A stretch of 64,000 nt of DNA from Clostridiales bacterium (GTDB lineage: Bacteria > Bacillota > Clostridia > Saccharofermentanales > Saccharofermentanaceae), in NCBI GenBank assembly GCA_017940895.1, contig JAGAXM010000020.1, forward strand, positions 788 through 64,787, read 5' to 3'. Under the pieces are notes generated by a model that saw only the letters and a program-made list of their open reading frames with translations, was not told the origin of the DNA and searched no databases. Shown here piece by piece: positions 33,929-48,269 of this stretch. The translations under genes were made by a program, and so were the position numbers. Position 1 is the first letter of the stretch; every line of letters begins with the position of its first letter.

Positions 33929-33957
33929 TTGACACGCAGTTTCAAAAAGAGTATAAA
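33929..33957 (+). promoter_or_regulatory. Sigma-A promoter of gltBD
   Basis: TTGACA-17 bp-TATAAA. Confidence 0.85.
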
Positions 33958-33980
33958 ATTTGTCAATTGAATAATTTGTA

Positions 33981-34034
33981 AGCAATGGCGCTTATTGATA
34001 CGAAGACCTCGTATCGGTAAGCGCCTTTTGTTTT
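33981..34034 (+). promoter_or_regulatory. ANTAR-type attenuator in the gltB leader
   Basis: Hairpin AGC-AATGGC-GCT overlaps the 5' arm of terminator GGCGCTTATTGATACGA/TCGTATCGGTAAGCGCC + TTTTGTTTT. Confidence 0.8.
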
Positions 34035-34057
34035 ACGAAGAAACAGGGGTAAACAGT

Positions 34058-37000
34058 ATGGAAGAGTTGAGAATTGACAACTACAGAGTTCAGGATGCCT
34101 TCTCCAAGAACGGACTGTATGATCCTTCCGAGGAGCACGAGAACTGCGGTATCGGTGCTGTTATCAAGATCGACGGCAAAGCTTCTTCTAAAGTTGTAGA
34201 TGATGCGCTTACAATTGTTGAGCAGCTCGAGCACAGAGCGGGTAAGGATGCTGAAGGTAAGACCGGTGACGGTGTTGGTTTCCTGGTTCAGATCTCACAT
34301 GATTTCTTCAGCAAGGCACTCGAATCCGACGGCATCAAGGTCGGTGGCAGAAGATCCTACGGTATCGGAATGTTCTTCATGCCGCAGACCGCCGAGAAGG
34401 CTGAGGCTGCCAAAAAAGTATTCGAAGAGTCATGTGCTAAAGAAGGACTTAAGTTCTTAGGCTGGCGTAAGGTTCCCGTTAACGAGGAAGTACTCGGTTC
34501 ACGTGCAAAAGAGAGTATGCCTACGATCCTGCAGGGTATCGTAGAGCGCCCCGCTGATGCTAAAGAAGATATTGATTTCGAGAGGAAGCTGTACTTTGCA
34601 AGAAAGCTTTTCGAGAAGGAAAACAACGACACTTATGTGTGCTCATGCTCATGCAGAACGATCGTATACAAGGGTATGTTCCTTGTAGGTCAGTTGAGAA
34701 CTTTCTATAAGGACCTCGCGGACGGCGCATACACATCCGCATTCGGTATCGTTCACTCAAGATTCTCCACGAACACTAACCCTACATGGCAGCGTTCACA
34801 TCCTTACCGTATGCTCGTTCATAATGGTGAGATCAACACGATCACGGGTAACATGAACAAGATGCTGTCCCGTGAGAATATCTTCAAGAGCGAGTATTTC
34901 GAGGGACGTTACGAGGATATCTACCCGATGCTCGACGTAACGGGTTCCGACTCCGCAAGACTTGATAATACGATCGAGTTCATGATGATGGCAGGTGTCC
35001 CGCTGCCGCTCGCGATCATGGTTACTATCCCTGAGCCCTGGCAGCACATGGATACGATGGACAGGGAGAAGAAGGCTTTCTATCAGTACTACGCTACTAT
35101 GATGGAGCCTTGGGACGGACCTGCTTCCATCATCTTCACAGACGGTGACAAGGTCGGTGCAGTGCTCGACAGAAACGGCCTTCGTCCCTCGAGGTATTAT
35201 GTAACTTCCGACGGATATCTTATCCTGTCTTCCGAGGTAGGAGTGATCGATGACCTTGATGAGAGCACGATCGTTAAGAAGGACCGTCTGCGCCCGGGCA
35301 AGATGCTCCTCGTAGATACAGTCGAGGGTGCGCTTATAGATGATGAGCACCTTAAGAATGAGTATGTCAGAAGGCAGCCTTATGGTGAGTGGTTAGATCA
35401 CATGCTCGTGGAGCTTCACGATCTCAAGATAGAGAATAAGAGGCCTGTCAGCCACCGAGACGAAGAACTCTACAGGCTTCAGCGTGCTTTCGGATATTCC
35501 TACGGAAATCTTAATAATGAGCTTATTCCTATGTGCCTTAACGGCAATGAGCCGACAGCAGCGATGGGTGTTGATGTGCCGGTACCTCCTTTGTCACAGC
35601 AGCAGCCCCCGCTGTTCGACTACTTTAAGCAGAAGTTCGCGCAGGTAACGAACCCGCCTCTGGACTGTATCCGCGAGGCTATTATCACTGATACGACAGT
35701 CTATCTTGGCGTTACAGGCAACATCCTCGAGGACCACGAAGAGAACTGCCGCGTGCTGAAAGTGCATAATCCTATACTTACTAATCTTGATCTCATGAAG
35801 ATCCGCGACAGCAGACTTGAGGGGCTGAAGACAGCTGATATCTCTATGCTCTATACGAAGGAGCAGGGGCTTGAGGATGCGCTTACATCTTTGTGCCGTC
35901 AGGCTGATGAGGCGCACAATAATGGTGCGACGATACTTATCCTTACTGACCGCGGAGTTGATGAAGAGCATATGGCGATCCCGTCGCTTCTTGCTGTAGC
36001 AGCGCTTGAGACATATCTTGTGCGCACACGTATGAATACGGCGGCATCGATAATCGTCGAGACGGGTGAGCCGATCGAGATTCATCATTTTGCTACATTG
36101 CTTGGCTTCGGTGCGAGTGCGGTTAATCCCTATCTTGCATTCGATACTATCCTTGATCTTATCCACCGCGGCGTGATCGATAAGGAGTTCACACAGGCTG
36201 CCGGCGCTTACATCAGCGCCATCGTAAGCGGAATCGTAAAGATCGCAGCGAAAATGGGTATCTCCACGATCCAATCTTACCAGGGCGCTAAGATCTTCGA
36301 GGCTTTGGGTATCGGTAAGGATCTCATGGATAAGTATTTCCCTGACACGGTAAGCCGCGTCGGCGGTATCACACTCGAGGATATCGCTAAGAGAACAGAG
36401 GCTCTGCACGATCATGCTTTCGATGTATACGGCAGAGGTTCTGCTGACGGTCTCGCAGTAAAGGGCTGGCACAAGTCCAGATCCGGCAAGGAAAAGCACC
36501 TCTACGATCCCGAGACGATCCACATGCTTCAGCTCGCTACAAGAAACGGCGACTACGCTACATTTAAGAAGTTTACTTCGCTTATCAATTCAGACGATCG
36601 CCACGTAACTTTGAGAAGTATGCTCGACTTCAATTACGATCTTTCTAAGGAGATCCCTCTCGAGGAAGTAGAGAGCGCAGAGTCGATCATGCACAGATTC
36701 AAGACAGGTGCTATGTCTTACGGTTCCATCTCACAGGAAGCACATGAATGCATGGCTATCGCGATGAACCGCATCGGCGGTAAGTCCAACTCCGGTGAGG
36801 GCGGTGAAGACTTGGAGAGAATCCGGACTGCGGGTTCCGAAGAGGACCGCTGCTCTGCGATCAAGCAGGTTGCATCGGGAAGATTCGGTGTTACTTCAAA
36901 GTACCTGATCTCTGCGAAGGAAATTCAGATCAAGATGGCTCAGGGCGCTAAGCCGGGTGAGGGAGGACATTTGCCCGCAGGTAAGGTTTATCCCTGGATC

Positions 37001-38635
37001 GCTAAGACAAGACACTCCACTCCGGGTGTTGCACTGATCTCACCTCCGCCGCACCATGATATCTATTCGATCGAGGATCTGGCGCAGCTGATCTATGACC
37101 TTCAGAATGCCAACTCCGATGCACGTATCTCCGTTAAGCTCGTATCCGAATCGGGCGTAGGAACTATCGCAGCAGGTGTTGCAAAGGCTGGTGCCAAGGT
37201 AATCCTCATCTCAGGTTATGACGGCGGTACGGGTGCTGCTCCGGCATCATCCATCCACCACGCAGGTCTGCCTTGGGAGATCGGTCTTGCAGAGACACAT
37301 CGTACATTGATCCGGAATAATCTGCGTTCACACGTACGTCTCGAGACTGACGGTAAGTTGCTCACAGGTAAGGACGTAGTAATCGCTGCTATGCTCGGTG
37401 CTGAGGAGTTCGGTTTTGCTACTGCACCGCTCGTAACCATGGGCTGCGTAATGATGAGAGTATGTAACCTCGATACATGTCCTGTAGGTGTCGCAACTCA
37501 GAACCCTGAGTTAAGAAAGAGATTCACGGGTAAGCCCGAGTACGTAATCAACTTCATGACATTCATCGCGAACGAGATGCGTGAGTATATGGCTAAGCTC
37601 GGTATCCGCACGGTTGATGAGCTCGTAGGCCGCGCAGACTTGCTCAAGGAAGCTGACTGCTCGCTCAAAGGTTCTGTTGATCTTTCAGAGATCATCCACG
37701 ATCCCGAGCTCGCACATCCTTCCGTCAAGAGACACTACGATGAGGCTGATGCTTACGACTTCAAGCTCGATGAGACTATCGACCGCCGTGAGATCATTCC
37801 CCAGATGGCAGATGCTCTTGAGAGCGGCTCTCACAAGGAGATCGAGATCAAGGTAAAGAACCTCGACCGTGCACTCGGTACGATCTTCGGTTCCGAGATA
37901 ACAAAGAGATACTACAACACACTTGAGGACGACACTTATGTAGTCAACGCGAAGGGTGCAGGCGGACAGAGCTTCGGTGCATTCATTCCTAAGGGCCTTA
38001 CGATCAACCTCGAGGGTGATACGAACGACTATTTCGGTAAGGGTCTGTCGGGCGGCGTGCTCACTGTATTCCCTTCCAAGAAGTGTGAGATCAAGCCTGA
38101 AGAGAACATCGTTGCGGGTAACGTAGCGCTTTTCGGTGCGACTTCCGGTAAGGCTTTCATAAACGGTCTTGCAGGCGAGAGATTCTGTGTAAGAAACTCC
38201 GGTGCCAAGGTCGTAGTCGAGGGCTTGGGAGATCACGGCTGTGAGTACATGACGGGCGGTGTCGCAGTAGTACTCGGTCCCGTAGGCAAGAACTTCGCAG
38301 CAGGTATGAGCGGCGGTGTCGCATATGTACTTGATGAGAAGAACAGCCTGTACACGAAGCTCAACAAGTCTCTCGTAGGTTTCGAGCATGTTGTGGACGA
38401 AGAAGACAGGAAGCAGCTTACAGACCTCATCGAAGAGCATGTAAGAAGAACAGGTTCGCCGTTAGGACAGAAGATCCTTAATTCCATTGACGAATATATC
38501 CCCCGCTTCAAGAAGGTCATCCCGCATGACTATAAGCGCATGATGAATTCCATCGCGACGCATATGGCTGCAGGCATGAGCGAAGATGAAGCAAAGATCG
38601 AAGCGTTCCACGAGAACACTTCAGCTAAGGCGTGA
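34058..38635 (+). CDS. gltB: Glutamate synthase large subunit
   Basis: ENCGIG N-terminal Cys, HNGEINT, MSYGSIS, KMAQGAKPGEGG, CNLDTCPVGVATQ; ATG at 34058. Confidence 0.97.
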   Translation: MEELRIDNYRVQDAFSKNGLYDPSEEHENCGIGAVIKIDGKASSKVVDDALTIVEQLEHRAGKDAEGKTGDGVGFLVQISHDFFSKALESDGIKVGGRRSYGIGMFFMPQTAEKAEAAKKVFEESCAKEGLKFLGWRKVPVNEEVLGSRAKESMPTILQGIVERPADAKEDIDFERKLYFARKLFEKENNDTYVCSCSCRTIVYKGMFLVGQLRTFYKDLADGAYTSAFGIVHSRFSTNTNPTWQRSHPYRMLVHNGEINTITGNMNKMLSRENIFKSEYFEGRYEDIYPMLDVTGSDSARLDNTIEFMMMAGVPLPLAIMVTIPEPWQHMDTMDREKKAFYQYYATMMEPWDGPASIIFTDGDKVGAVLDRNGLRPSRYYVTSDGYLILSSEVGVIDDLDESTIVKKDRLRPGKMLLVDTVEGALIDDEHLKNEYVRRQPYGEWLDHMLVELHDLKIENKRPVSHRDEELYRLQRAFGYSYGNLNNELIPMCLNGNEPTAAMGVDVPVPPLSQQQPPLFDYFKQKFAQVTNPPLDCIREAIITDTTVYLGVTGNILEDHEENCRVLKVHNPILTNLDLMKIRDSRLEGLKTADISMLYTKEQGLEDALTSLCRQADEAHNNGATILILTDRGVDEEHMAIPSLLAVAALETYLVRTRMNTAASIIVETGEPIEIHHFATLLGFGASAVNPYLAFDTILDLIHRGVIDKEFTQAAGAYISAIVSGIVKIAAKMGISTIQSYQGAKIFEALGIGKDLMDKYFPDTVSRVGGITLEDIAKRTEALHDHAFDVYGRGSADGLAVKGWHKSRSGKEKHLYDPETIHMLQLATRNGDYATFKKFTSLINSDDRHVTLRSMLDFNYDLSKEIPLEEVESAESIMHRFKTGAMSYGSISQEAHECMAIAMNRIGGKSNSGEGGEDLERIRTAGSEEDRCSAIKQVASGRFGVTSKYLISAKEIQIKMAQGAKPGEGGHLPAGKVYPWIAKTRHSTPGVALISPPPHHDIYSIEDLAQLIYDLQNANSDARISVKLVSESGVGTIAAGVAKAGAKVILISGYDGGTGAAPASSIHHAGLPWEIGLAETHRTLIRNNLRSHVRLETDGKLLTGKDVVIAAMLGAEEFGFATAPLVTMGCVMMRVCNLDTCPVGVATQNPELRKRFTGKPEYVINFMTFIANEMREYMAKLGIRTVDELVGRADLLKEADCSLKGSVDLSEIIHDPELAHPSVKRHYDEADAYDFKLDETIDRREIIPQMADALESGSHKEIEIKVKNLDRALGTIFGSEITKRYYNTLEDDTYVVNAKGAGGQSFGAFIPKGLTINLEGDTNDYFGKGLSGGVLTVFPSKKCEIKPEENIVAGNVALFGATSGKAFINGLAGERFCVRNSGAKVVVEGLGDHGCEYMTGGVAVVLGPVGKNFAAGMSGGVAYVLDEKNSLYTKLNKSLVGFEHVVDEEDRKQLTDLIEEHVRRTGSPLGQKILNSIDEYIPRFKKVIPHDYKRMMNSIATHMAAGMSEDEAKIEAFHENTSAKA

Positions 38636-38649
38636 GAGGAGATAAGACA

Positions 38650-40119
38650 ATGGGAAAATCAACAGGATTCATGGAATATCAAAGAGTAAATAACCCCGGG
38701 CTTGAGCCTCTCGAGAGGATCAAGAACTATCGTGAGTTCCATTCACCTTTGGATGAAGCGCGAAGGCGCGAGCAGGGTGCGCGCTGCATGAACTGCGGTG
38801 TGCCTTTCTGCCAGTACGGTAAGCCCATCTGCGGCATGGTCGCGGGCTGCCCCTTAAACAACCTCTGTCCCGACTGGAACGACCTCGTATACAAGGGCTT
38901 CTGGGACGAAGCACTTGAACGCCTTATGCTCACGAATGCGTTCCCGGAGTTCACGTCCCGCGTATGTCCCGCCCTGTGCGAAAAGGCATGCGTCTGCGGT
39001 CTTAATGACGAGCCGGTAACAACGAAAGAGAATGAGTATTCGATCATCGAGCACGGATATGAGTCCGGCACTATGAAGGCTCATGTACCTGCGAACCGTA
39101 CAGGTAAGAAGGTAGCGGTAATCGGATCCGGTCCTTCCGGTCTGTCGACTGCATACTGGCTTAATATGAGAGGCCACGAAGTAACTGTATATGAGAAGTC
39201 TGACCGTCCGGGAGGATTGCTGATGTACGGTATCCCGAACATGAAGCTCGAGAAGTCGGTTATCCTTCGCAGAGTTAAGATCCTCGAGGAAGAGGGAATC
39301 ACATTCAAGTGTTCGGTCAACGTTGGTGTCGATATCACATATGAGGAACTCAAGTCTTCATATGATGCGGTTGTTCTTTGCTGCGGTGCGGGTAACCCCA
39401 GAGATATCAAGGCTGAGGGTCGCGATGCGAAGGGCATCTACTTCGCAGTGGATTTCCTCCGTGCTACGACTCAGTCACTGCTTGCATCGAACATGGCTGA
39501 TACGAAGTATATCAGCGCTAAGTATAAGGACGTTATCATCATCGGCGGTGGTGACACGGGTAACGACTGTGTAGGTACATGTATGCGTCACGGATGTAAG
39601 TCCGTAACACAGCTTGAGATGATGCCTGCACCTCCTGTAGAGCGTGCTGCAAATAACCCTTGGCCTGAGTGGCCGAAGATCCTCAAGACCGATTACGGTC
39701 AAGAGGAAGCTGCTGCAGTATTCGGTCATGATCCCCGTGTTTACTGCACGACGGTTAAGAAGTTTATCAAGGATGAGAACGGTAAGTTGTCCGCTGTTGA
39801 GACAGTTGAACTTAAGAGCGTTAGGGATGAGACGACAGGCCGCTTCAATATGGTTCCCGTAGAAGGAACAGAGAAGACACTGCCCTGTCAGCTGGTTCTC
39901 ATTGCTGCAGGATTCTTAGGACCCCAGTCTTATGTGGTCGATGCATTCGGAGTTGATACCAATGCAAGATCCAACATCGAGACAGGTTCAGGTCATGCCA
40001 CATCGGTTCCCGGCGTATTCGCCGCTGGTGACTGCAAGAGAGGTCAGTCGCTGGTCGTATGGGGACTTCGTGAGGGAAGAGATGCGGCAGCAGAAGTTGA
40101 TCAGTATCTGATGAAATAA
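38650..40119 (+). CDS. gltD: Glutamate synthase small subunit
   Basis: ARCMNCGVPFC, GCP, RVCPALCE, GSGPSG, GGGDTGNDC, AGD. Confidence 0.97.
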   Translation: MGKSTGFMEYQRVNNPGLEPLERIKNYREFHSPLDEARRREQGARCMNCGVPFCQYGKPICGMVAGCPLNNLCPDWNDLVYKGFWDEALERLMLTNAFPEFTSRVCPALCEKACVCGLNDEPVTTKENEYSIIEHGYESGTMKAHVPANRTGKKVAVIGSGPSGLSTAYWLNMRGHEVTVYEKSDRPGGLLMYGIPNMKLEKSVILRRVKILEEEGITFKCSVNVGVDITYEELKSSYDAVVLCCGAGNPRDIKAEGRDAKGIYFAVDFLRATTQSLLASNMADTKYISAKYKDVIIIGGGDTGNDCVGTCMRHGCKSVTQLEMMPAPPVERAANNPWPEWPKILKTDYGQEEAAAVFGHDPRVYCTTVKKFIKDENGKLSAVETVELKSVRDETTGRFNMVPVEGTEKTLPCQLVLIAAGFLGPQSYVVDAFGVDTNARSNIETGSGHATSVPGVFAAGDCKRGQSLVVWGLREGRDAAAEVDQYLMK

Positions 40120-40150
40120 GAAATCCCCTGTTTCTATTCATCATTATTGA

Positions 40151-40188
40151 ACCGCCCCTGCGAAGTGATTCGCGGGGGCGGTAGTTTT
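40151..40188 (+). terminator. Intrinsic terminator after gltD
   Basis: ACCGCCCCTGCGAA/TTCGCGGGGGCGGT followed by AGTTTT. Confidence 0.85.
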
Positions 40189-40200
40189 GTTAAATGTGAT

Positions 40201-40313
40201 CCAGAGACAAAACCAGTGACAGTTTTTGAATTTTGTCTCTGGCTTTGTCACTGAGCGCTCTGTAGAGACAAAAACAGTGACAAATCTCGATTTTTGTCAC
40301 TGGATTTGTCACT
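40201..40313. repeat. Two ~61-bp units built from CCAG(A/T)GACAAA half-sites and their complements
   Basis: Eight half-sites in an AA..A'A' pattern, visible directly. Confidence 0.75.
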
Positions 40314-40329
40314 GGGCAAGTAGAGATCC

Positions 40330-40540
40330 TTAATCCAGGTCGTTCTGGAAGCGGGACAAGTGCTCGAAAGGCATGATCTGCCTGCCTCGGAACAGGCCGC
40401 AGCCGTCGTTGATCAGTTGGTTGTTAAGAGCGGTGAACATATTGACGTCTACGGCACTTAACGTAATCCCTGTAGTCGGACTCGGGTGTGAAGCCGCGCT
40501 CTTTAAGGAAGTTCGGCATGATCTCGGCTATCTCATATAA
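40330..40540 (-). pseudogene. Frameshifted 3' remnant of a lost gene (possibly an asparagine synthase C-terminus)
   Basis: LYEIAEIMPNFLKERGFTPESDYRDYVK / one extra base / AVDVNMFTALNNQLINDGCGLFRGRQIMPFEHLSRFQNDLD*. Host-like codons, no start. Identity is from recollection only. Confidence 0.55.
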
Positions 40541-40618
40541 GATTGATTATACAAAATGAGCTCCCCGGCGAATAGGGAGCCCACTCTGTTGAGTTTATGA
40601 ATAACGGAAAGAGGTAAC

Positions 40619-42385
40619 TTATCCGTGATCCTGTAATGCTGCGAAGCCTGTCTCTCCGGTTCTGATACGTACGACGTTCTCAACGTTGTAGACGAAGATC
40701 TTACCGTCGCCGATGTGACCTGTGTACAGAACTTTCTTAGCTGTGTCGATAACAGTGTCTACAGGTACCTTGGATACGATGATATCCACTTTGATCTTAG
40801 GCAGCAGTGATGCCTCTACAGGTACACCTCTGTAGTACTCCTGACGACCCTTCTGTGCGCCGCAACCGAGTACGTGTGAAACTGTCATACCGGTTACGCC
40901 GACGCCCATGAGGGCTTTCTTGAGGGAGTCGAGCTTACTCTCTTTGCAGATGATCTCGACCTTTGTATACTTCTTGCCGTCTGCTGTAGGAGGTACGATA
41001 GTGGTAACGTTCGTAACTTCGACTGCGGACTCGACGGGAACCTCACCGACAACTGCGGGAGCCTCTACGTCAGCCATCTCAACGATAGCCTGAGGTCTCA
41101 TAGAGAAGCCGGCGTATGCTGCAGGGAGACCGTGCTCTGTAGGATCGAGACCTTCGATCTCTTCTTCACGTGATACACGGAGACCGTGAACCTTCTTGAT
41201 AACTGCGAATGTGATCGTCATAAGAACTGCTGTCCATGCAACGATAGATGTGATACCGAGGCACTGTACACCGAATACCTTAAGACCTGCGTTGAAATCT
41301 GATCCGTGGATCAAAGCGTAGATAGGACCGTCCACTCCGTAGGAGGATGTGCTTGTAGCGAAAAGACCGGCGCAGAGAGTACCTACGATACCGTTAGCGA
41401 GGTGAACGCCGCAGGCACCGACAGGGTCGTCGATGTGAAGCTTGAGGTCGAGCCACTCAACTACGAGAACTACCAGGATACCGGAGATAAGACCTTCAGC
41501 GAAAGCACCTGCTGCATCGATACAGTGGCAGCCGGCTGTTACGTTTACGAGACCTGCGAGGGAAGCGTTGATGCACATGGATACATCAGGCTTACCGTTC
41601 TTGAGCCAAGTGAAGATCATACATGTAACTGTAGCAACTGCAGGAGCGATTGTTGTTGTAAGGAAGATAGCAGCGAGCTGTGAACCGGAAGTTGCAGCCG
41701 CACCGTTGAATCCGTACCAGCCGAACCAGAGGATGAAGCATCCTAATGCTCCGATCGGGATGTTGTGACCCTGAATAGCGTTAACCTTGATGACCTTACC
41801 GGAATCGTCTCTTATATACTTACCGATACGGGGACCGACCATGATCGCACCGATGAGAGCGGCAACACCGCCGACTGTATGGATACAAGCAGAACCTGCG
41901 AAATCGATGAAGCCTAAGTTAGCAAGCCATCCTGCGGGGTTCCATGTCCAGCCTGCCTCGATAGGATATACGATGAGGGAGAGGACTGCGGAATAGATGC
42001 AGTAAGAGCTGAACTTTGTTCTCTCTGCCATAGCACCTGAAACGATAGTGGCTGCCGTGGCACAGAATACGAGGTTGAATACGAAGCTTGAAGCGTTGTT
42101 CTCCATAAAGCCCGTAAAGTCTGTGAAGATAGAGAGGTTCGGGATTCCGATGAATCCTGCGATCATATCTTCACCCATCATGAGACCGAAGCCCAAGAAG
42201 ATAAAACATACTGTTCCAATACAGAAGTCCATGAGGTTCTTCATGAGGATGTTACCTGCGTTCTTGGCGCGGCAGAAACCAGCTTCGAGCATTGCGAATC
42301 CGGCCTGCATGAAGAATACCAGCGCAGCTCCGATAAGGAACCAGATTCCGAAGACCTCCTGTGTGATTAATTCGGTGACATTCAT
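40619..42385 (-). CDS. amt: Ammonium transporter fused to a C-terminal P-II domain
   Basis: FMQAGFAMLEAG, DFAGS..IH, HIDDPV..VHL. P-II part: LGCGAQKG..YYRG, KIKVDI, TGHIGDGKIFV..RIRTGE. RBS AGGAGG before ATG 42385. Confidence 0.95.
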   Translation of the reverse strand: MNVTELITQEVFGIWFLIGAALVFFMQAGFAMLEAGFCRAKNAGNILMKNLMDFCIGTVCFIFLGFGLMMGEDMIAGFIGIPNLSIFTDFTGFMENNASSFVFNLVFCATAATIVSGAMAERTKFSSYCIYSAVLSLIVYPIEAGWTWNPAGWLANLGFIDFAGSACIHTVGGVAALIGAIMVGPRIGKYIRDDSGKVIKVNAIQGHNIPIGALGCFILWFGWYGFNGAAATSGSQLAAIFLTTTIAPAVATVTCMIFTWLKNGKPDVSMCINASLAGLVNVTAGCHCIDAAGAFAEGLISGILVVLVVEWLDLKLHIDDPVGACGVHLANGIVGTLCAGLFATSTSSYGVDGPIYALIHGSDFNAGLKVFGVQCLGITSIVAWTAVLMTITFAVIKKVHGLRVSREEEIEGLDPTEHGLPAAYAGFSMRPQAIVEMADVEAPAVVGEVPVESAVEVTNVTTIVPPTADGKKYTKVEIICKESKLDSLKKALMGVGVTGMTVSHVLGCGAQKGRQEYYRGVPVEASLLPKIKVDIIVSKVPVDTVIDTAKKVLYTGHIGDGKIFVYNVENVVRIRTGETGFAALQDHG

Positions 42386-42419
42386 AATGTGCACCCTCCT
42401 TCTCGAAAAATTTTTGTAG

Positions 42420-42464
42420 AAAAACAGCCCGTCCTCTTATCAAGGGAACGGGCTGCCATAGACC
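42420..42464 (-). terminator. Terminator/attenuator between glnN and amt
   Basis: CAGCCCGTTCCCTT-GATA-AGAGGACGGGCTG followed by TTTTT (minus strand), preceded by GGTC-TATGGC-AGCC. Confidence 0.8.
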
Positions 42465-42482
42465 GTGAATTGTATGTGCGGT

Positions 42483-44546
42483 TTATCTTACTGCGAACAG
42501 AAGATCTCCGTATGTAGGGAATGGCCAGTATTCTGCTGCTGTCTCTTCCTCGAGCTTATCGCATGATGCGCGAAGCTCTGTCATGTCCTTGATGATCTCA
42601 TCCTTGAAGAAGTCAGCCTTCTCTACGAGGTCTTCGATCTCATCGGACTTCTCAACGGCTGCCTTCAAAGCCTTGTAGGAACCGTATGCGTTTGTAAGAT
42701 CTGCCGTGATCTCGTCGAGTGTTTCTTTAGCGAATACGTTCTCTGTGCTTGATGCAAGCTCTGAAGAATAGGCGTTGACTGCAGGGAGGATATCCTGCTT
42801 TGCCATCTCGAGCATTGTCTTTGCTTCGATGTCGATAAGCTTGGTGTACTTCTCGAGGAATACTTCGTGTCTGGACTGCATCTCGATCTCGGAGTAAACC
42901 TTGTGTGAAGTGAAGAGAGCAACGTTCTTCTCATCCATATAGTGCTTAACTGCATCAGGCAGTGTGCGCAGGTTGGAAAGACCTCTCTTCTCAGCTTCTT
43001 CGATCCATGCATCGTCGTAACCGTTACCGTTGAAGATGATTCTCTGGTGAGCTGTGATCTCTTCCTTGATCAGATCGTGAAGGGCAGTTGTGAAATCAGA
43101 TGCGCCCTCGAGCTTATCGGCGAACTGCTTTAAGGACTCTGCTACAGCTGTGTTAAGAACTGTGTTGGGAAGAGCAACGGATGCTGCGGAACCTAACATT
43201 CTGAACTCGAACTTGTTGCCTGTGAAAGCGAACGGTGAAGTTCTGTTTCTGTCTGTAGTGTCCTTAGGGAACTTAGGAAGTACGTGTACGCCTACCTTGA
43301 GAAGTTCCTTCTCCTTAGCACCGTAAGGCTCATCCTTTACGATAGCCTCGAGGATCTCTGTGAGCTCGGATCCCAAGAAGATGGAGATTACAGCCGGAGG
43401 AGCTTCGTTAGCACCGAGTCTGTGGTCGTTACCTGCGGATGCTACTGAGATACGGAGCATATCCTGATAATCGTCTACAGCCTTGATAACTGCTGTGAGC
43501 ATGAGGAGGAACTGAGCGTTCTCATAAGGTGTCTCACCGGGCTCAAGGAGGTTAGCGCCTGTATCTGTGCTCATGGACCAGTTGTTGTGCTTACCGGAAC
43601 CGTTAACACCTGCGAAAGGCTTTTCGTGCAGGAGACAGACGAGGCCGTGCTTCTGTGCTACCTTCTTCATGATCTCCATTGTTAACTGGTTGTGATCTGT
43701 AGCTATATTAGTTGTAGTAAAGATAGGTGCGAGCTCGTGCTGTGAAGGTGCAACTTCGTTATGCTCTGTTGTAGCGAGGATTCCGAGCTTCCACAACTCA
43801 TCGTTAAGATCCTTCATGAAAGCCTGTACGCGGGGCTTGATGGCACCGAAGTAGTGATCTTCCATCTGCTGACCCTTCGGAGGAACCGCACCGAAAAGTG
43901 TTCTTCCTGTATAGATAAGGTCTCTTCTTGCGTTGTATCCCTTCTCATCGATGAGGAAGTACTCCTGCTCGGGACCTACTGTTGTCTTAACACTTGATAC
44001 GTCCTCGTTGCCGAAGAGCTTCAGAACTCTCATTGCCTGCTTGTTCAAAGCTTCCATGGAACGGAGAAGAGGAATCTTCTTGTCGAGAGCCTCACCGCCG
44101 TAAGAGCAGAATGCTGTAGGGATGCACAGGACTCCTTCCTTGATGAAAGCGTAGGATGTAGGATCCCATGCTGTATAGCCTCTTGCTTCGAATGTTGCAC
44201 GAAGACCGCCGGAAGGGAAGGAAGAAGCATCAGGCTCGCCCTGTGTAAGAGCCTTGCCAGAGAATCTCAGGATGATGTTGCCGTCATCTGTGGGATTAAC
44301 AAAGCTGTCGTGCTTCTCTGATGTGTAACCTGTCATAGGCTGGAACCAGTGGGTATAGTGTGTAGCACCCTTCTCGATAGCCCACTGCTTCATCTCGTTA
44401 GCGACAACGGAAGCTGCTTCGTCTGAAAGTCTCTTACCGTTATCGATGGCGGCCTTGACTTCCTTGAAAGTCTCCTTAGGCAGGCGTGCCTTCATGACGC
44501 TCAAACTGAATACATTCTCGCCGAAGATCTCAGATGTGTCTTTCAT
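42483..44546 (-). CDS. glnN: Glutamine synthetase type III
   Basis: [97 protein letters not shown]; start 44546 or 44552. Confidence 0.96.
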
Positions 44547-44614
44547 GTTCATAAACTCCTTGTCATTAGTTTTTGAATTAATCGAACGGCTAACTTGCAT
44601 TTTTGACTTTGTGC

Positions 44615-44709
44615 AAAAGAAAAGGCACCGAGGGTGTAAACCTTCGGCGCCTTTGCCTGTATCAATCATTTTCGACTGTGATGATAACCCTCTGCTAACC
44701 GCTTGTCAA
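44615..44709 (-). promoter_or_regulatory. glnN promoter plus ANTAR-type attenuator
   Basis: TTGACA(44709-44704)-17 bp-TATCAT. Hairpin GGC-AAAGGC-GCC (44657-44646) overlaps terminator AAAGGCGCCGAAGG/CCCTCGGTGCCTTTT. Confidence 0.85.
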
Positions 44710-44733
44710 GAGAAAATTTGCAAGAAGTTGCGA

Positions 44734-44830
44734 TTGACAATTCATAATCCGGAATGTTATCTTTTTTAAGAACAAAGGCGTTCATTCGGGTAAAAACCAA
44801 TCTGCCCGAATGGGCGCGTTTACTTTTTTG
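44734..44830 (+). promoter_or_regulatory. Promoter plus ANTAR-type attenuator of the glnA-like/ANTAR/pyrG operon
   Basis: TTGACA-18 bp-(TGn)TATCTT. Hairpin GAAC-AAAGGC-GTTC (44770-44783) overlaps stem GCGTTCATTCGGGTA/TGCCCGAATGGGCGC with a downstream T-run. Confidence 0.75.
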
Positions 44831-44862: not shown

Positions 44863-46071
44863 ATGAATTGTTCTATTGATGAGTTCATGCAGTATATCGA
44901 AGAGGAGGACATCAAGTTCATAAGACTTCTGTTCTGTGATGTCTTCGGTAACCCCAAGAACATCTCCGCGATGCCGTCATATATCGAGAGAGCGTTTAAT
45001 GAAGGCGTCGGTATCAACCCCATGGGTATCGACGGATTCAAGGAAGAATCCAGATCGGAAGTCTTCCTTCATCCGGAGCCTGATACGGCGGCGCTCCTTC
45101 CTTGGAGACCTGATTCGGGAAGAGTCGTAAGACTGTTCTGTGATCTTAAATATCAGGACGGAACTCCTTTCGCAGCGGATACGAGAAATATCTTGAGAAA
45201 TGCAGTAAAGAAGGCTGCGCAAGAAGGAATTAAATTCACGATCGGCACTCGTATAGAGTTCTATCTTTTCAAGACGGACGAAGACGGCGAGCCTACGAAG
45301 GTTCCTTTCGACAAGGCGGGATATATGGATATCGCTCCTCTTGATAAGGGCGCGAACGTAAGAAGAGAGATCTGCCTTACGCTCGAACGCATGGGCATCC
45401 AGCCTTTCAATTCTCATCACGAAGCAGGTCCCGGACAGAACGAGATCGACTTCGTGTCGGCTGACCCCGTTAAGGCTGCCGACGATGTTGTTACTTATAT
45501 CTCTGTTGTTAAGACCATCGCTGCGCGTAACGGTCTTTATGCAGATTTCTCACCCAAGCCCCTGTCGGGACTTCCGGGTAACGGATTCCATGTAAATATC
45601 AGTGCGAGCCGCGACGGCGATACATCGGTTATGCCTTCCGTTATCGAGGGCATTATGCAGAAGATCTACGACATGACGATCTTCCTTAACCGCTGCGAAG
45701 ACTCGTATCAGAGAATCGGGAAGGGCGATGCGCCCAGATTTATATCGTGGTCCGGCGGCAACTTCGGACAGCTTGTCCGCGTACCCCAAAGCTCCGGTCA
45801 CCACTATGCTCAACTGCGTTCCCCTGACGCGTTCAGCAATCCGTATCTGACGTTCGCCCTTCTCATTTATGCAGGTCTGTACGGTATTAAGAATAACCTC
45901 GAGCTGCGTGCTCCGGTTGATCAGGATCTTACTTACATACCGTCGAATGTGGGAGACTTCAAGATGCTCCCGAGAACGATAGACGAGGCGAAAGAAGCGG
46001 CTAAGAGCAGCGACTTCCTTAAGGAGTATCTGCCCGAGTCAATCATAGAGGCGTACTGTGCGCAGGGATAA
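44863..46071 (+). CDS. Glutamine synthetase type I homologue, probably catalytically degenerate
   Basis: GS-I fold motifs (IRLLFCDVFG, HHEAGPGQNEIDF, PKP, NPYL) but GTRIEF, NFGQLVR and YAQLRS replace GPEPEF, NRSPLIR and RVEVRS; C-terminus is short. Confidence 0.85.
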   Translation: MNCSIDEFMQYIEEEDIKFIRLLFCDVFGNPKNISAMPSYIERAFNEGVGINPMGIDGFKEESRSEVFLHPEPDTAALLPWRPDSGRVVRLFCDLKYQDGTPFAADTRNILRNAVKKAAQEGIKFTIGTRIEFYLFKTDEDGEPTKVPFDKAGYMDIAPLDKGANVRREICLTLERMGIQPFNSHHEAGPGQNEIDFVSADPVKAADDVVTYISVVKTIAARNGLYADFSPKPLSGLPGNGFHVNISASRDGDTSVMPSVIEGIMQKIYDMTIFLNRCEDSYQRIGKGDAPRFISWSGGNFGQLVRVPQSSGHHYAQLRSPDAFSNPYLTFALLIYAGLYGIKNNLELRAPVDQDLTYIPSNVGDFKMLPRTIDEAKEAAKSSDFLKEYLPESIIEAYCAQG

Positions 46072-46645
46072 TGCATATTCTGTATTATTAGTATCGAGCA
46101 ATGAGAAGATGACCTCTTCTTTATCGGTATTTCTGTCCCGCGAAGACTACGGTCCCGTGGTTACTTCTGAGTCTGTCTCTGCGGCCAGAAGACTCGTGTC
46201 CCAGCGCGACTTCGATATCGTCATAATCAACACACCTTTGAAGGATGAGATCGGTATTAATTTCGCGATAGAGATCGCGGATTCATCGTCAAGTTCGGTC
46301 ATGCTTCTTGTTAAGGCCGATATGTTCGACGAGGTCTCGTATAAGATGCAGGACTGCGGAGTGTTCACGCTCGCGAAGCCTGTCAATTCCACTGTGCTCG
46401 GCTACTCGATGAAGATGATGTGCTCTACTCGTGAGAGGCTTCTTCGCATGGAGCAGAAGCAGAAGACATTCGAGGAGAAACTCGAGGAGATCAAGATCGT
46501 TAACCGCGCTAAGATCATACTCGTGGAGAACCTGTCGATGTCTGAAGAAGAGGCACATAAGTTTATAGAGAAGAACGCGATGAACGAGCGCAAGAGCAAG
46601 GTGTTCATCGCGAAGAAGATAATAAGCGAATATAAAAAACCATAA
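46058..46645 (+). CDS. Pseudo-receiver + ANTAR antitermination regulator (NitR/NasT/AmiR-like)
   Basis: C-terminal IVNRAKIILVENLSMSEEEAHKFIEKNAMNERK is ANTAR. The receiver has LLVSS and IIN in place of DD and the phospho-Asp. GTG start overlaps the upstream gene. Confidence 0.9.
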   Translation: MRRDNAYSVLLVSSNEKMTSSLSVFLSREDYGPVVTSESVSAARRLVSQRDFDIVIINTPLKDEIGINFAIEIADSSSSSVMLLVKADMFDEVSYKMQDCGVFTLAKPVNSTVLGYSMKMMCSTRERLLRMEQKQKTFEEKLEEIKIVNRAKIILVENLSMSEEEAHKFIEKNAMNERKSKVFIAKKIISEYKKP

Positions 46646-46670: not shown

Positions 46671-48269
46671 ATGACCAAATACATTTTCGTTACGGGAGGA
46701 GTCGTGTCGGGTCTCGGTAAAGGGATAACCGCCGCTTCTCTCGGAAGACTTCTTAAGATGCGCGGATTCAAGGTCGCGGCGCAGAAGCTCGACCCGTATA
46801 TCAACGTGGATCCCGGTACGATGAGCCCTTATCAGCACGGCGAGGTTTACGTTACCGAGGACGGCTGCGAGACTGACCTGGATCTCGGTCACTACGAGAG
46901 ATTCATCGATGAGGACTTAAACCGCTTCTCGAACATCACCACGGGTAAGGTGTACTCGAATGTCATCTCCAAGGAGCGAAAAGGTGAGTACCTGGGTAAG
47001 ACGGTTCAGATCATTCCTCATATTACTGATGAGATTAAACAGTTCATTTATAACGTAGGTAAGACTTCCGATGCGGATATCGTAATTACCGAGGTCGGAG
47101 GCACGATCGGTGATATCGAGTCCCAGCCTTTCATCGAGGCGATCCGTCAGGTCGGTAATGAGGTGGGTCCGCATGATTCTTTGTATGTGCATGTTACTTT
47201 ATTGCCTTACCTCAAGGCTTCGGGCGAGCACAAGTCCAAGCCTACACAGCACTCCGTTAAGGAACTGCAGGGAATGGGAATATCGCCTGATATTATTGTG
47301 CTTCGTACCGACGAGCCGATCGAGGATAAGTCGATCATCAGTAAGATCGCTAACTTCTGTAATGTTAAGGAAGACTGCGTCATCGAGAACCAGACTCTGC
47401 CGATTCTTTATGAGGCTCCGCTGATGCTCGAGAAGGCAGGTCTGTCGAATGCGGTTCTTCGTAAGCTCGGCATCTTCTGCGGTCATCCGGATCTGGGCGA
47501 GTGGAAGAAGGTTATCGAGAATATCCGTAACCGTGAAGGCCATGTGAAGATCGGTCTGATCGGTAAGTATACACAGCTTCATGACGCATATCTGTCAGTT
47601 GCCGAGGCGCTCCGTCACGCAGGTTATGAGGAGCGTGTTTATGTTGATATCGACTGGATCGATTCCGAGACTATAACTGCTGATAATGTTGCTTCTATAC
47701 TCGGTAAGCTCGACGGAGTCATCGTGCCCGGCGGATTCGGTAACCGCGGTATCGAGGGTATGGTACAGACTGCCAAGTACTGTAGAGAGAATAATGTTCC
47801 TTATCTCGGTATCTGTCTCGGTATGCAGATCACGGTTATCGAGGCTGCACGTTCGTTGCTTGGGTTAACTGATGCGAATTCCGGTGAGTTCGATGCGAAG
47901 TGCGCACATAAGGTCATCGACTTCATGCCCGGCCAGAATGATGAGATCGAGAAGGGCGGTACACTCCGTCTCGGAAGTTACCCTTGTTCAGTAGTTGCAG
48001 GTACTAAGCTTGAAGAGCTCTACGGCGAGTCCGAGATCCGTGAGAGACACAGACACCGCTATGAGTACAACAACGACTACCGTGAGGACCTCGAGAAGGC
48101 AGGTCTTAAGATCTCCGGTCTGTCACCTGACGGAAGACTTGTCGAGACAGTCGAGTTCGAGAAGAATGACTTCTATGTAGGTGTTCAGTTCCACCCCGAG
48201 TTCAAGAGCCGTCCGAACAAGCCTCATCCTTTATTCCTGGGGCTTATCAGGGCTTCAATGAAGAAATGA
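46671..48269 (+). CDS. pyrG: CTP synthase
   Basis: [54 protein letters not shown]. Confidence 0.98.

Follow-up and report, generated by a model that had tools for sequence, protein, structure and literature searches.

A nitrogen-assimilation locus with three leader elements

The 64-kb stretch of DNA analysed here (the window, positions 788–64787 of contig C7) is from the 2.65 Mb genome (47% G+C) of a member of the rumen Clostridia. It includes a set of nitrogen-assimilation genes and three short leader elements, in each of which a hexaloop hairpin overlaps an intrinsic terminator. We consider it probable that these elements are protein-dependent, ANTAR-type transcription attenuators that have been reduced to one hairpin.

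Gene identities in the window were assigned with Pfam profile searches. The predicted target genes gltB (34058–38635) and gltD (38632–40119), on the forward strand (together 34058–40119), encode the large and small subunits of glutamate synthase (GOGAT). On the reverse strand, glnN (42483–44552) encodes a type III glutamine synthetase (GS; Pfam GSIII_N) and has an amtB-glnK fusion gene (40619–42394) downstream. Divergent from glnN is a forward-strand operon that consists of a gene for a 402 aa GS-I paralogue (44863–46071; here GS-like), a gene for a 195 aa REC-ANTAR protein with a pseudo-receiver domain (46058–46645) and pyrG (46671–48269), which encodes CTP synthase, a glutamine amidotransferase. 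The start of the ANTAR open reading frame overlaps the stop of the GS-like gene by 14 nt. As pyrG starts only 25 nt past the ANTAR gene and there is no terminator in the gap, it was assigned to the autoregulated GS-like/ANTAR operon as its third gene. The closest public loci were found in rumen Clostridiales metagenome-assembled genomes (MAGs), Saccharofermentans, Mageeibacillus and 'Ruminococcaceae bacterium YRB3002'.

The gltBD promoter, read from the sequence (33929–33957, forward strand), has the −35 box TTGACA (33929–33934) and the −10 box TATAAA (33952–33957) either side of a 17-nt spacer, a geometry also found in 11 gltB leaders of the genus. It is followed by a candidate antiterminator hairpin, GTAAGC-AATGGC-GCTTAT (33978–33995, forward strand; core AGC-AATGGC-GCT at 33981–33992), that has a predicted folding free energy of −4.7 kcal/mol and is of the type called P2, the second hairpin of canonical ANTAR targets. 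The intrinsic terminator of this leader (33987–34034, forward strand) has a 17-bp stem, GGCGCTTATTGATACGA...TCGTATCGGTAAGCGCC (33987–34025), followed by TTTTGTTTT, and its 5′ arm begins within the hexaloop. The glnN promoter (44681–44709, reverse strand; −35 TTGACA at 44709–44704, 17-nt spacer, −10 TATCAT at 44686–44681) was the top promoter-like match (11/12 matches) when a 14.7-kb region was scanned. The corresponding hairpin, GGC-AAAGGC-GCC (44657–44646, reverse strand), which with its flanks reads CAGGCAAAGGCGCC, is kept before glnN in 23 related loci, and the terminator (44615–44652, reverse strand) is made up of AGGCGCCGAAGG...CCCTCGGTGCCTT (44652–44622) and a T-run. Second in the same scan (10/12 matches, TG present) was the GS-like operon promoter (44734–44763, forward strand; −35 TTGACA at 44734–44739, 18-nt spacer, extended −10 TGtTATCTT at 44755–44763), the position of which is kept in related loci L001–L008. 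The hairpin of this leader, GAAC-AAAGGC-GTTC (44770–44783, forward strand), lies at approximately +1, and its terminator (44778–44829, forward strand) has a 13-bp base helix, GCGTTCATTCGGG...CCCGAATGGGCGC (44778–44817), followed by GTTTACTTTTTT. Direct reading thus confirmed, position for position, the AA(A/U)GGC hairpin–terminator elements that the original prediction had placed in these leaders, along with the near-consensus sigma-A promoters ahead of them.

All three hairpins have a 3–6 bp stem, a closing C-G pair and the hexaloop AA(A/T)GGC, and the 3′ half of each is also the base of a compact intrinsic terminator. Alone, the hairpins are weak (−1.6 to −4.7 kcal/mol), and the terminator fold is 9–16 kcal/mol more stable than the fold in which the hairpin is enforced. 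As the terminator fold is favoured and the hairpins are weak, termination is likely to be the default state, with a factor needed to hold the hairpin. A covariance model, R1, was built from 29 leaders, with the terminator represented as structure and the hairpin 5′ arm and loop as sequence. With filters off, R1 matched the window at 33976–34033 (gltB, 47.4 bits), 44616–44662 (glnN, 38.6 bits) and 44766–44826 (GS-like, 44.6 bits) and returned nothing above 15.4 bits in the rest of the 64 kb, though it was trained partly on these three leaders.

A further element, ATTTGCAAG (44716–44724), is situated between the −35 boxes of the divergent glnN and GS-like promoters and is kept in L001–L006. It may serve as an UP element or as the site of a transcription factor, which would add DNA-level control to both promoters.

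One hairpin in place of two

In the definition of Ramesh et al. 2012 (PMC3369931), an ANTAR target comprises two hexaloop hairpins, P1 and P2. A loop with A1 and G4 and an overlap of hairpin and terminator are P2 features under that definition, and the leaders described here match both, as had been proposed. P1 was sought in the predicted transcripts of 47 distinct leaders, none of which offered a candidate with an ANNGNN hexaloop and a stem of 3 bp or more. In these leaders the hairpin core starts 6–26 nt past the −10 box, and in approximately 20 of them the gap is 6–10 nt, which places the core at about +1. In the window, the extended −10 box of the GS-like leader ends at 44763, and as the hairpin begins 6 nt past it, at 44770, this leader has no room for a P1. 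The suggestion that these elements might be a single-hairpin variant was therefore borne out, with the absence of P1 resting on predicted start sites, many of them behind promoters that are a perfect TTGACA-17-TATAAT.

The best-surviving alternative, which we nevertheless consider unlikely, is that the elements are canonical dual-hairpin targets in which P1 has been overlooked, either because transcription starts earlier than predicted or because a degenerate AT-rich box serves as a stand-in. ANTAR binding needs, at minimum, a single hexaloop (PMC8934654), but EutV antitermination of the eut leaders in vivo depends on P1 (PMC3369931; PMC8934654). In addition, the gltB and glnN leaders have a conserved 13–16-nt AT-rich 5′ tail ahead of the hairpin, and some copies contain ANNGNN strings such as ATTGAA and ATTGAT. 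A semi-conserved AT-rich box, also seen in relatives, is located 5–8 nt upstream of the hairpin in the gltB leader (CAATTGAATA, 33964–33973, forward strand) and the glnN leader (TGATTGATA, 44668–44660, reverse strand). However, comparison of 11 gltB leaders of the genus revealed that the G of this box is not conserved (ATTAAA and TTAAAT are found in L089, L091 and L092) and that no pairing is maintained, which argues against it as a P1. The glnN leader also has a local hairpin, CAGTC-GAAAAT-GATTG, but its loop is of the wrong type and conservation does not extend to L001–L003. Where two hexaloops do occur in one leader, in glnN leaders of Acutalibacteraceae (L014, L020–L022, L026, L030, L033, L034, L048 and L074), they are tandem single-hairpin attenuators, spaced approximately 72 nt from each other, with a separate terminator for each. 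An overlooked P1 also sits poorly with the absence of any candidate from the 47 predicted transcripts and with the short distances between consensus −10 boxes and hairpin cores.

Distribution, reader and covariation of the element

When the element was defined as a string and counted in this genome alone, four copies were observed where 1.4 were expected, a definition that missed the GS-like and dapL copies. As this single-genome enrichment is too weak by itself, we relied on comparative data instead. A generic scan for ANNGNN loops upstream of the GS-like gene returned exactly one hairpin-plus-terminator in 46/78 related loci, and all 46 of these elements carry C-A(A/C)NGNN-G. Loose fold-based scans yielded many false positives in coding regions. 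Two candidates were examined and rejected: C22:87690, which sits within a response-regulator gene, and C9:203347 (TTTAC-AATGAG-GTAAG), which serves as terminator to the gene upstream and has no R1 score.

A covariance model run against the genome and its relatives had been called for in the original prediction, and the R1 scan located the element at two further sites in this genome and in relatives that encode an ANTAR protein. Both additional sites are on contig C32, one at C32:81099–81157 (38.6 bits) before dapL, which encodes LL-diaminopimelate aminotransferase (TIGR03542), and the other at approximately 142274 (reverse strand; 32.4 bits, loop AATGGG) before carAB. In relatives, R1 matches precede gltB, glnN, the GS-like operon, carA, a gdhA-like gene, amtB-glnK and a C26 amidotransferase gene, and in other Clostridia and rumen Treponema the element is also found before pyrG, asnB, purF, carA/carB, gltD and dapL. 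The genes behind all located matches make or use glutamine or glutamate. Thus, what had been described as a local nitrogen regulon is a nitrogen regulon but not a local one, as dapL and carAB share the element from another contig while amtB-glnK, within the locus, has no copy of its own.

The amtB-glnK gene (40619–42394, reverse strand) encodes AmtB and a PII (GlnK) domain as one fused 591 aa protein. Neither an attenuator nor an obvious promoter belongs to the gene itself, which is located past the glnN terminator (approximately 42457–42420). It is possibly expressed by read-through from glnN, and its link to the regulon is putative. Two strong convergent terminators (40151–40182, forward strand; 40302–40275, reverse strand) separate gltD from amtB-glnK. 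Weak matches to Rfam microRNA families near 40150–40300 are false and are caused by these long gltD/amtB terminator hairpins.

The same GS-like/ANTAR pair is present, at 47–51% identity, in rumen and gut Treponema MAGs (L038–L075). There, hairpins with the loop AAAGAG or AAAGGC precede pyrG, asnB, purF, carA/B, gltD and the GS-like/ANTAR pair itself. From sequence comparison, the whole module looks like it has been transferred horizontally between phyla (Clostridia and Spirochaetes). An ANTAR-less subclade of the genus (L096–L102) has a different gltB leader containing a long inverted repeat, TGAAATCATAC...GTATGATTTCA, which suggests that a DNA-binding regulator may have replaced the RNA switch in this subclade.

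The genome contains a single ANTAR gene, the one in the window. Among a first sample of 41 relatives, R1 matches were found in 15/16 ANTAR-positive and 0/9 ANTAR-negative genomes of the genus (Fisher test, 4.9e-6). In another and larger sample, drawn from the order, 18/20 ANTAR-positive and 0/14 ANTAR-negative genomes within the genus were matched, and across the order an ANTAR protein is encoded in 23/24 motif-positive genomes compared with 70/151 overall (p = 3e-8); neither statistic takes phylogeny into account. R1 is insensitive outside the genus, where it matched 5 of approximately 42 ANTAR-positive genomes of other families, and its silence there is uninformative. In the structure of EutV with RNA, the hexaloop is contacted by Lys143, Lys147, Lys149, Glu160 and Met172 (PMC8934654), and the equivalent residues (K/R146, R150, K152, E163 and M175) are kept across the family to which the window protein belongs. 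The equivalent of EutV Tyr164 is His in 75/75 family members. There is also experimental precedent for the hairpin sequence itself, which is not new. GnfR, an ANTAR protein of Geobacter sulfurreducens, bound the site CAGGCAANGGCGCC in a gel shift (Ueki & Lovley 2010, PMC2995071), and it binds RNA containing CAGGCAAGGGCGCC but not a mutant version (PMC2995071). The glnN hairpin in the window, CAGGCAAAGGCGCC, fits CAGGCAANGGCGCC exactly, and the likeness is partial for the gltB and GS-like leaders, which have C-AANGGC-G with other stems.

We conclude that the sole ANTAR protein of this genome is the most likely reader of the hairpins. ANTAR binding in this family is predicted from sequence, and the GS-like gene is linked to the element as tightly as the ANTAR gene is, so a different factor might be considered: the GS-like protein, a PII protein, another RNA-binding protein or a small molecule acting on a riboswitch. 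Such a reader is very unlikely, as the loop signature and closing pair are typical of ANTAR targets, the RNA-contact residues are kept, every ANTAR-negative genome of the genus lacks the element and an identical sequence is bound by the Geobacter protein. A ligand pocket would also not fit in so small an element, and the leaders matched no Rfam family, the glutamine riboswitch included, either at the gathering threshold or with E ≤ 10.

An alignment of 39 non-identical leaders from relatives was used to assess covariation. The closing C-G pair, A1 and G4 are invariant in 39/39 leaders, with A2 conserved to 90% or more. The four inner stem pairs are formed in 37–39 of the 39 and show compensatory exchanges between AU, GC and CG, with a score that was reached by none of 500 shuffles. 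This bears out the observation, made on the three window leaders, that the stems differ yet still pair around a conserved loop. One stem position is G-U in 18/39 leaders, which argues for pairing at the RNA level rather than a DNA palindrome. The base helix of the terminator covaries as well, with double changes in 10/12 pairs, and it shares alignment columns 15–20 with the hairpin 3′ arm. Two mutually exclusive helices therefore both covary, as a regulated two-state switch predicts. That the inverted repeat is instead a DNA operator for a repressor, for which the GS-like repeat at about +1 to +14 is in the usual position, or that these are constitutive leader terminators with no regulated switch, is the least probable reading of all, given a stem that covaries rather than being conserved in sequence (and would be G-T in DNA at the variable position), an asymmetric loop, a promoter distance that ranges over 6–26 nt against a fixed terminator register, and a competing hairpin that would not be conserved before essential assimilation genes if termination were constitutive.

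Proposed circuit and comparison with known systems

In the receiver domain of the window ANTAR protein, the acidic pair DD is replaced by SS and the phospho-accepting Asp by Asn (VIIN). The first acidic residue is absent from 75/75 ANTAR homologues, and the phospho-Asp is Asn in 47/75. The ANTAR open reading frame directly follows the GS-like gene in 75/76 loci, down to 47% identity and in two phyla, and 48 related loci have the element ahead of the GS-like gene; together these observations support the autoregulation that had been suspected. In the GS-like protein, R130 occupies the position equivalent to Bacillus subtilis E132, F301 that of the arginine of the NRS motif and Q317 that of E333, and its score of 265.8 bits is below the GlnA equivalog cut-off of 429. 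These losses of catalytic residues are confined to the subclade of the window (9/47), and most ANTAR-linked GS proteins retain the residues. The His-to-Asn change in the QHE motif is common to all 46 relatives. As the residues have been lost in the subclade while synteny has been kept, enzyme activity of GS-like seems dispensable in this lineage and linkage to ANTAR does not.

Since a pseudo-receiver ANTAR protein directly follows a GS-I paralogue so consistently, an AmiC/AmiR-like sequestration of ANTAR by the paralogue is suggested. By the same analogy, and because the receiver appears non-phosphorylatable and its gene is translationally coupled to that of a GS paralogue, GS-like is probably the nitrogen-status sensor of the ANTAR protein.

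Under the reading that we favour, a single-hairpin attenuator read by ANTAR, transcription from a strong sigma-A promoter would by default stop 45–75 nt later at the intrinsic terminator. Alternatively, the first 14–18 nt of the element could fold into the weak hairpin, with a stem of 3–6 bp, a closing C-G pair and a hexaloop A-A-N-G-R-N, and so sequester the bottom 5–8 nt of the terminator 5′ arm. Binding of the ANTAR protein would stabilise this hairpin, leaving a shortened terminator helix parted from the U-tract, and RNA polymerase would read through. When glutamine is abundant, GS-like would keep ANTAR inactive, and it would release ANTAR once nitrogen becomes limiting. The predicted regulon consists of gltBD, glnN (perhaps with amtB-glnK), GS-like/ANTAR/pyrG, where autoregulation would be positive, dapL and carAB.

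Several points weigh against this reading. All of the promoters and start sites are predictions, and the carAB copy, which was part of the R1 training set, is the weakest. The ANTAR-negative genomes may form one clade. Given the requirement for P1 in eut, it is unproven that one hairpin suffices for antitermination. The sensor role draws on synteny and analogy, and GS-like proteins elsewhere may be plain enzymes. Finally, the binding and read-through steps are inferred, as are the sign of the response to nitrogen and the interaction of GS-like with ANTAR.

ANTAR control of nitrogen genes is already established, through NitR, GnfR and the regulons of Ramesh et al., which include a GS+ANTAR operon in Alkaliphilus (PMC3369931 Table S2). 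The GnfK/GnfR system is close in its RNA sites, as the Geobacter site is likewise upstream of, and overlaps, a leader terminator, and its targets are also nitrogen genes (nif, glnK and amtB leaders). However, GnfR is a true response regulator with a kinase, GnfK, whereas the window protein has a pseudo-receiver and a GS partner and lacks a kinase. The Geobacter promoters are RpoN-dependent, while those in the window are of the sigma-A type and the hairpin can sit at +1. With the eut system of Enterococcus faecalis (EutV/EutW), the leaders share A1 and G4 of the hexaloop, the closing pair and a P2 that overlaps the terminator 5′ arm, and the proteins share the contact residues. They differ in that P1 is absent, A2 is also conserved, the Tyr164 equivalent is an invariant His and the window protein is predicted not to be phosphorylated.

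Gene order is similar in Clostridium saccharobutylicum, where NitR of the glnA-nitR-gltAB cluster has been proposed to antiterminate the GS/GOGAT genes on nitrogen limitation (Stutz et al. 2007, as cited in PMC6316151), and in Clostridium thermocellum, where the seemingly orthologous Clo1313_2031/2030 pair is beside, and co-expressed with, GOGAT (PMC4676874). In both, as here, the ANTAR gene is directly after a type I GS gene and adjoins GOGAT genes. For the window, the RNA targets are defined and the GS partner has lost catalytic residues; in the literature searched, we did not find RNA targets described for either. Deletion of the C. thermocellum GS-I gene reportedly deregulates nitrogen metabolism (Rydzak 2017).

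The pairing of a pseudo-receiver ANTAR protein with a co-encoded ligand-binding partner, instead of control by phosphorylation, has parallels in AmiC/AmiR of Pseudomonas aeruginosa and NasS/NasT of Paracoccus (PMC3795266). In those systems the partner has a periplasmic-binding-protein fold, whereas here it has a glutamine-synthetase fold and the complex is a putative one. Walshe et al. (2022, PMC8934654) expected single-hexaloop sites only where there is no transcriptional time constraint, in contrast to the sites described here, which are located in attenuators. In the literature searched, we found no description of a single-hairpin attenuator as a whole element, sometimes at +1, or of a pseudo-receiver ANTAR/GS-paralogue pair as the regulator of single-hairpin attenuators.

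Searches that require two hairpins will miss this single-hairpin class. Ramesh et al. listed one match in C. thermocellum, an ammonium transporter (PMC3369931), and the design of such searches may explain why it was alone despite an ANTAR protein in the GS/GOGAT cluster of that species.

Many Clostridia lack NtrBC, and their nitrogen sensing is only partly understood. The locus described here offers a compact candidate circuit, with a GS paralogue as the sensor, a pseudo-receiver ANTAR protein as the output, five RNA targets of 14–18 nt and a coherent set of glutamine/glutamate genes. The wider proposal is that a single hexaloop, even at the 5′ end of a transcript, suffices for ANTAR antitermination, that a GS paralogue, catalytically stripped in this genus, senses the metabolite and gates a non-phosphorylatable ANTAR protein, and that together these make up the main nitrogen (glutamine) regulon in many Clostridia of the gut and rumen and, by horizontal transfer, in rumen Treponema. 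We advance it tentatively, as slightly less probable than its contrary. A large natural family of one-hairpin attenuators that have no room for P1 makes the P1 requirement directly testable. If the proposal is true, ANTAR proteins would not in general need the P1 recruitment hairpin.

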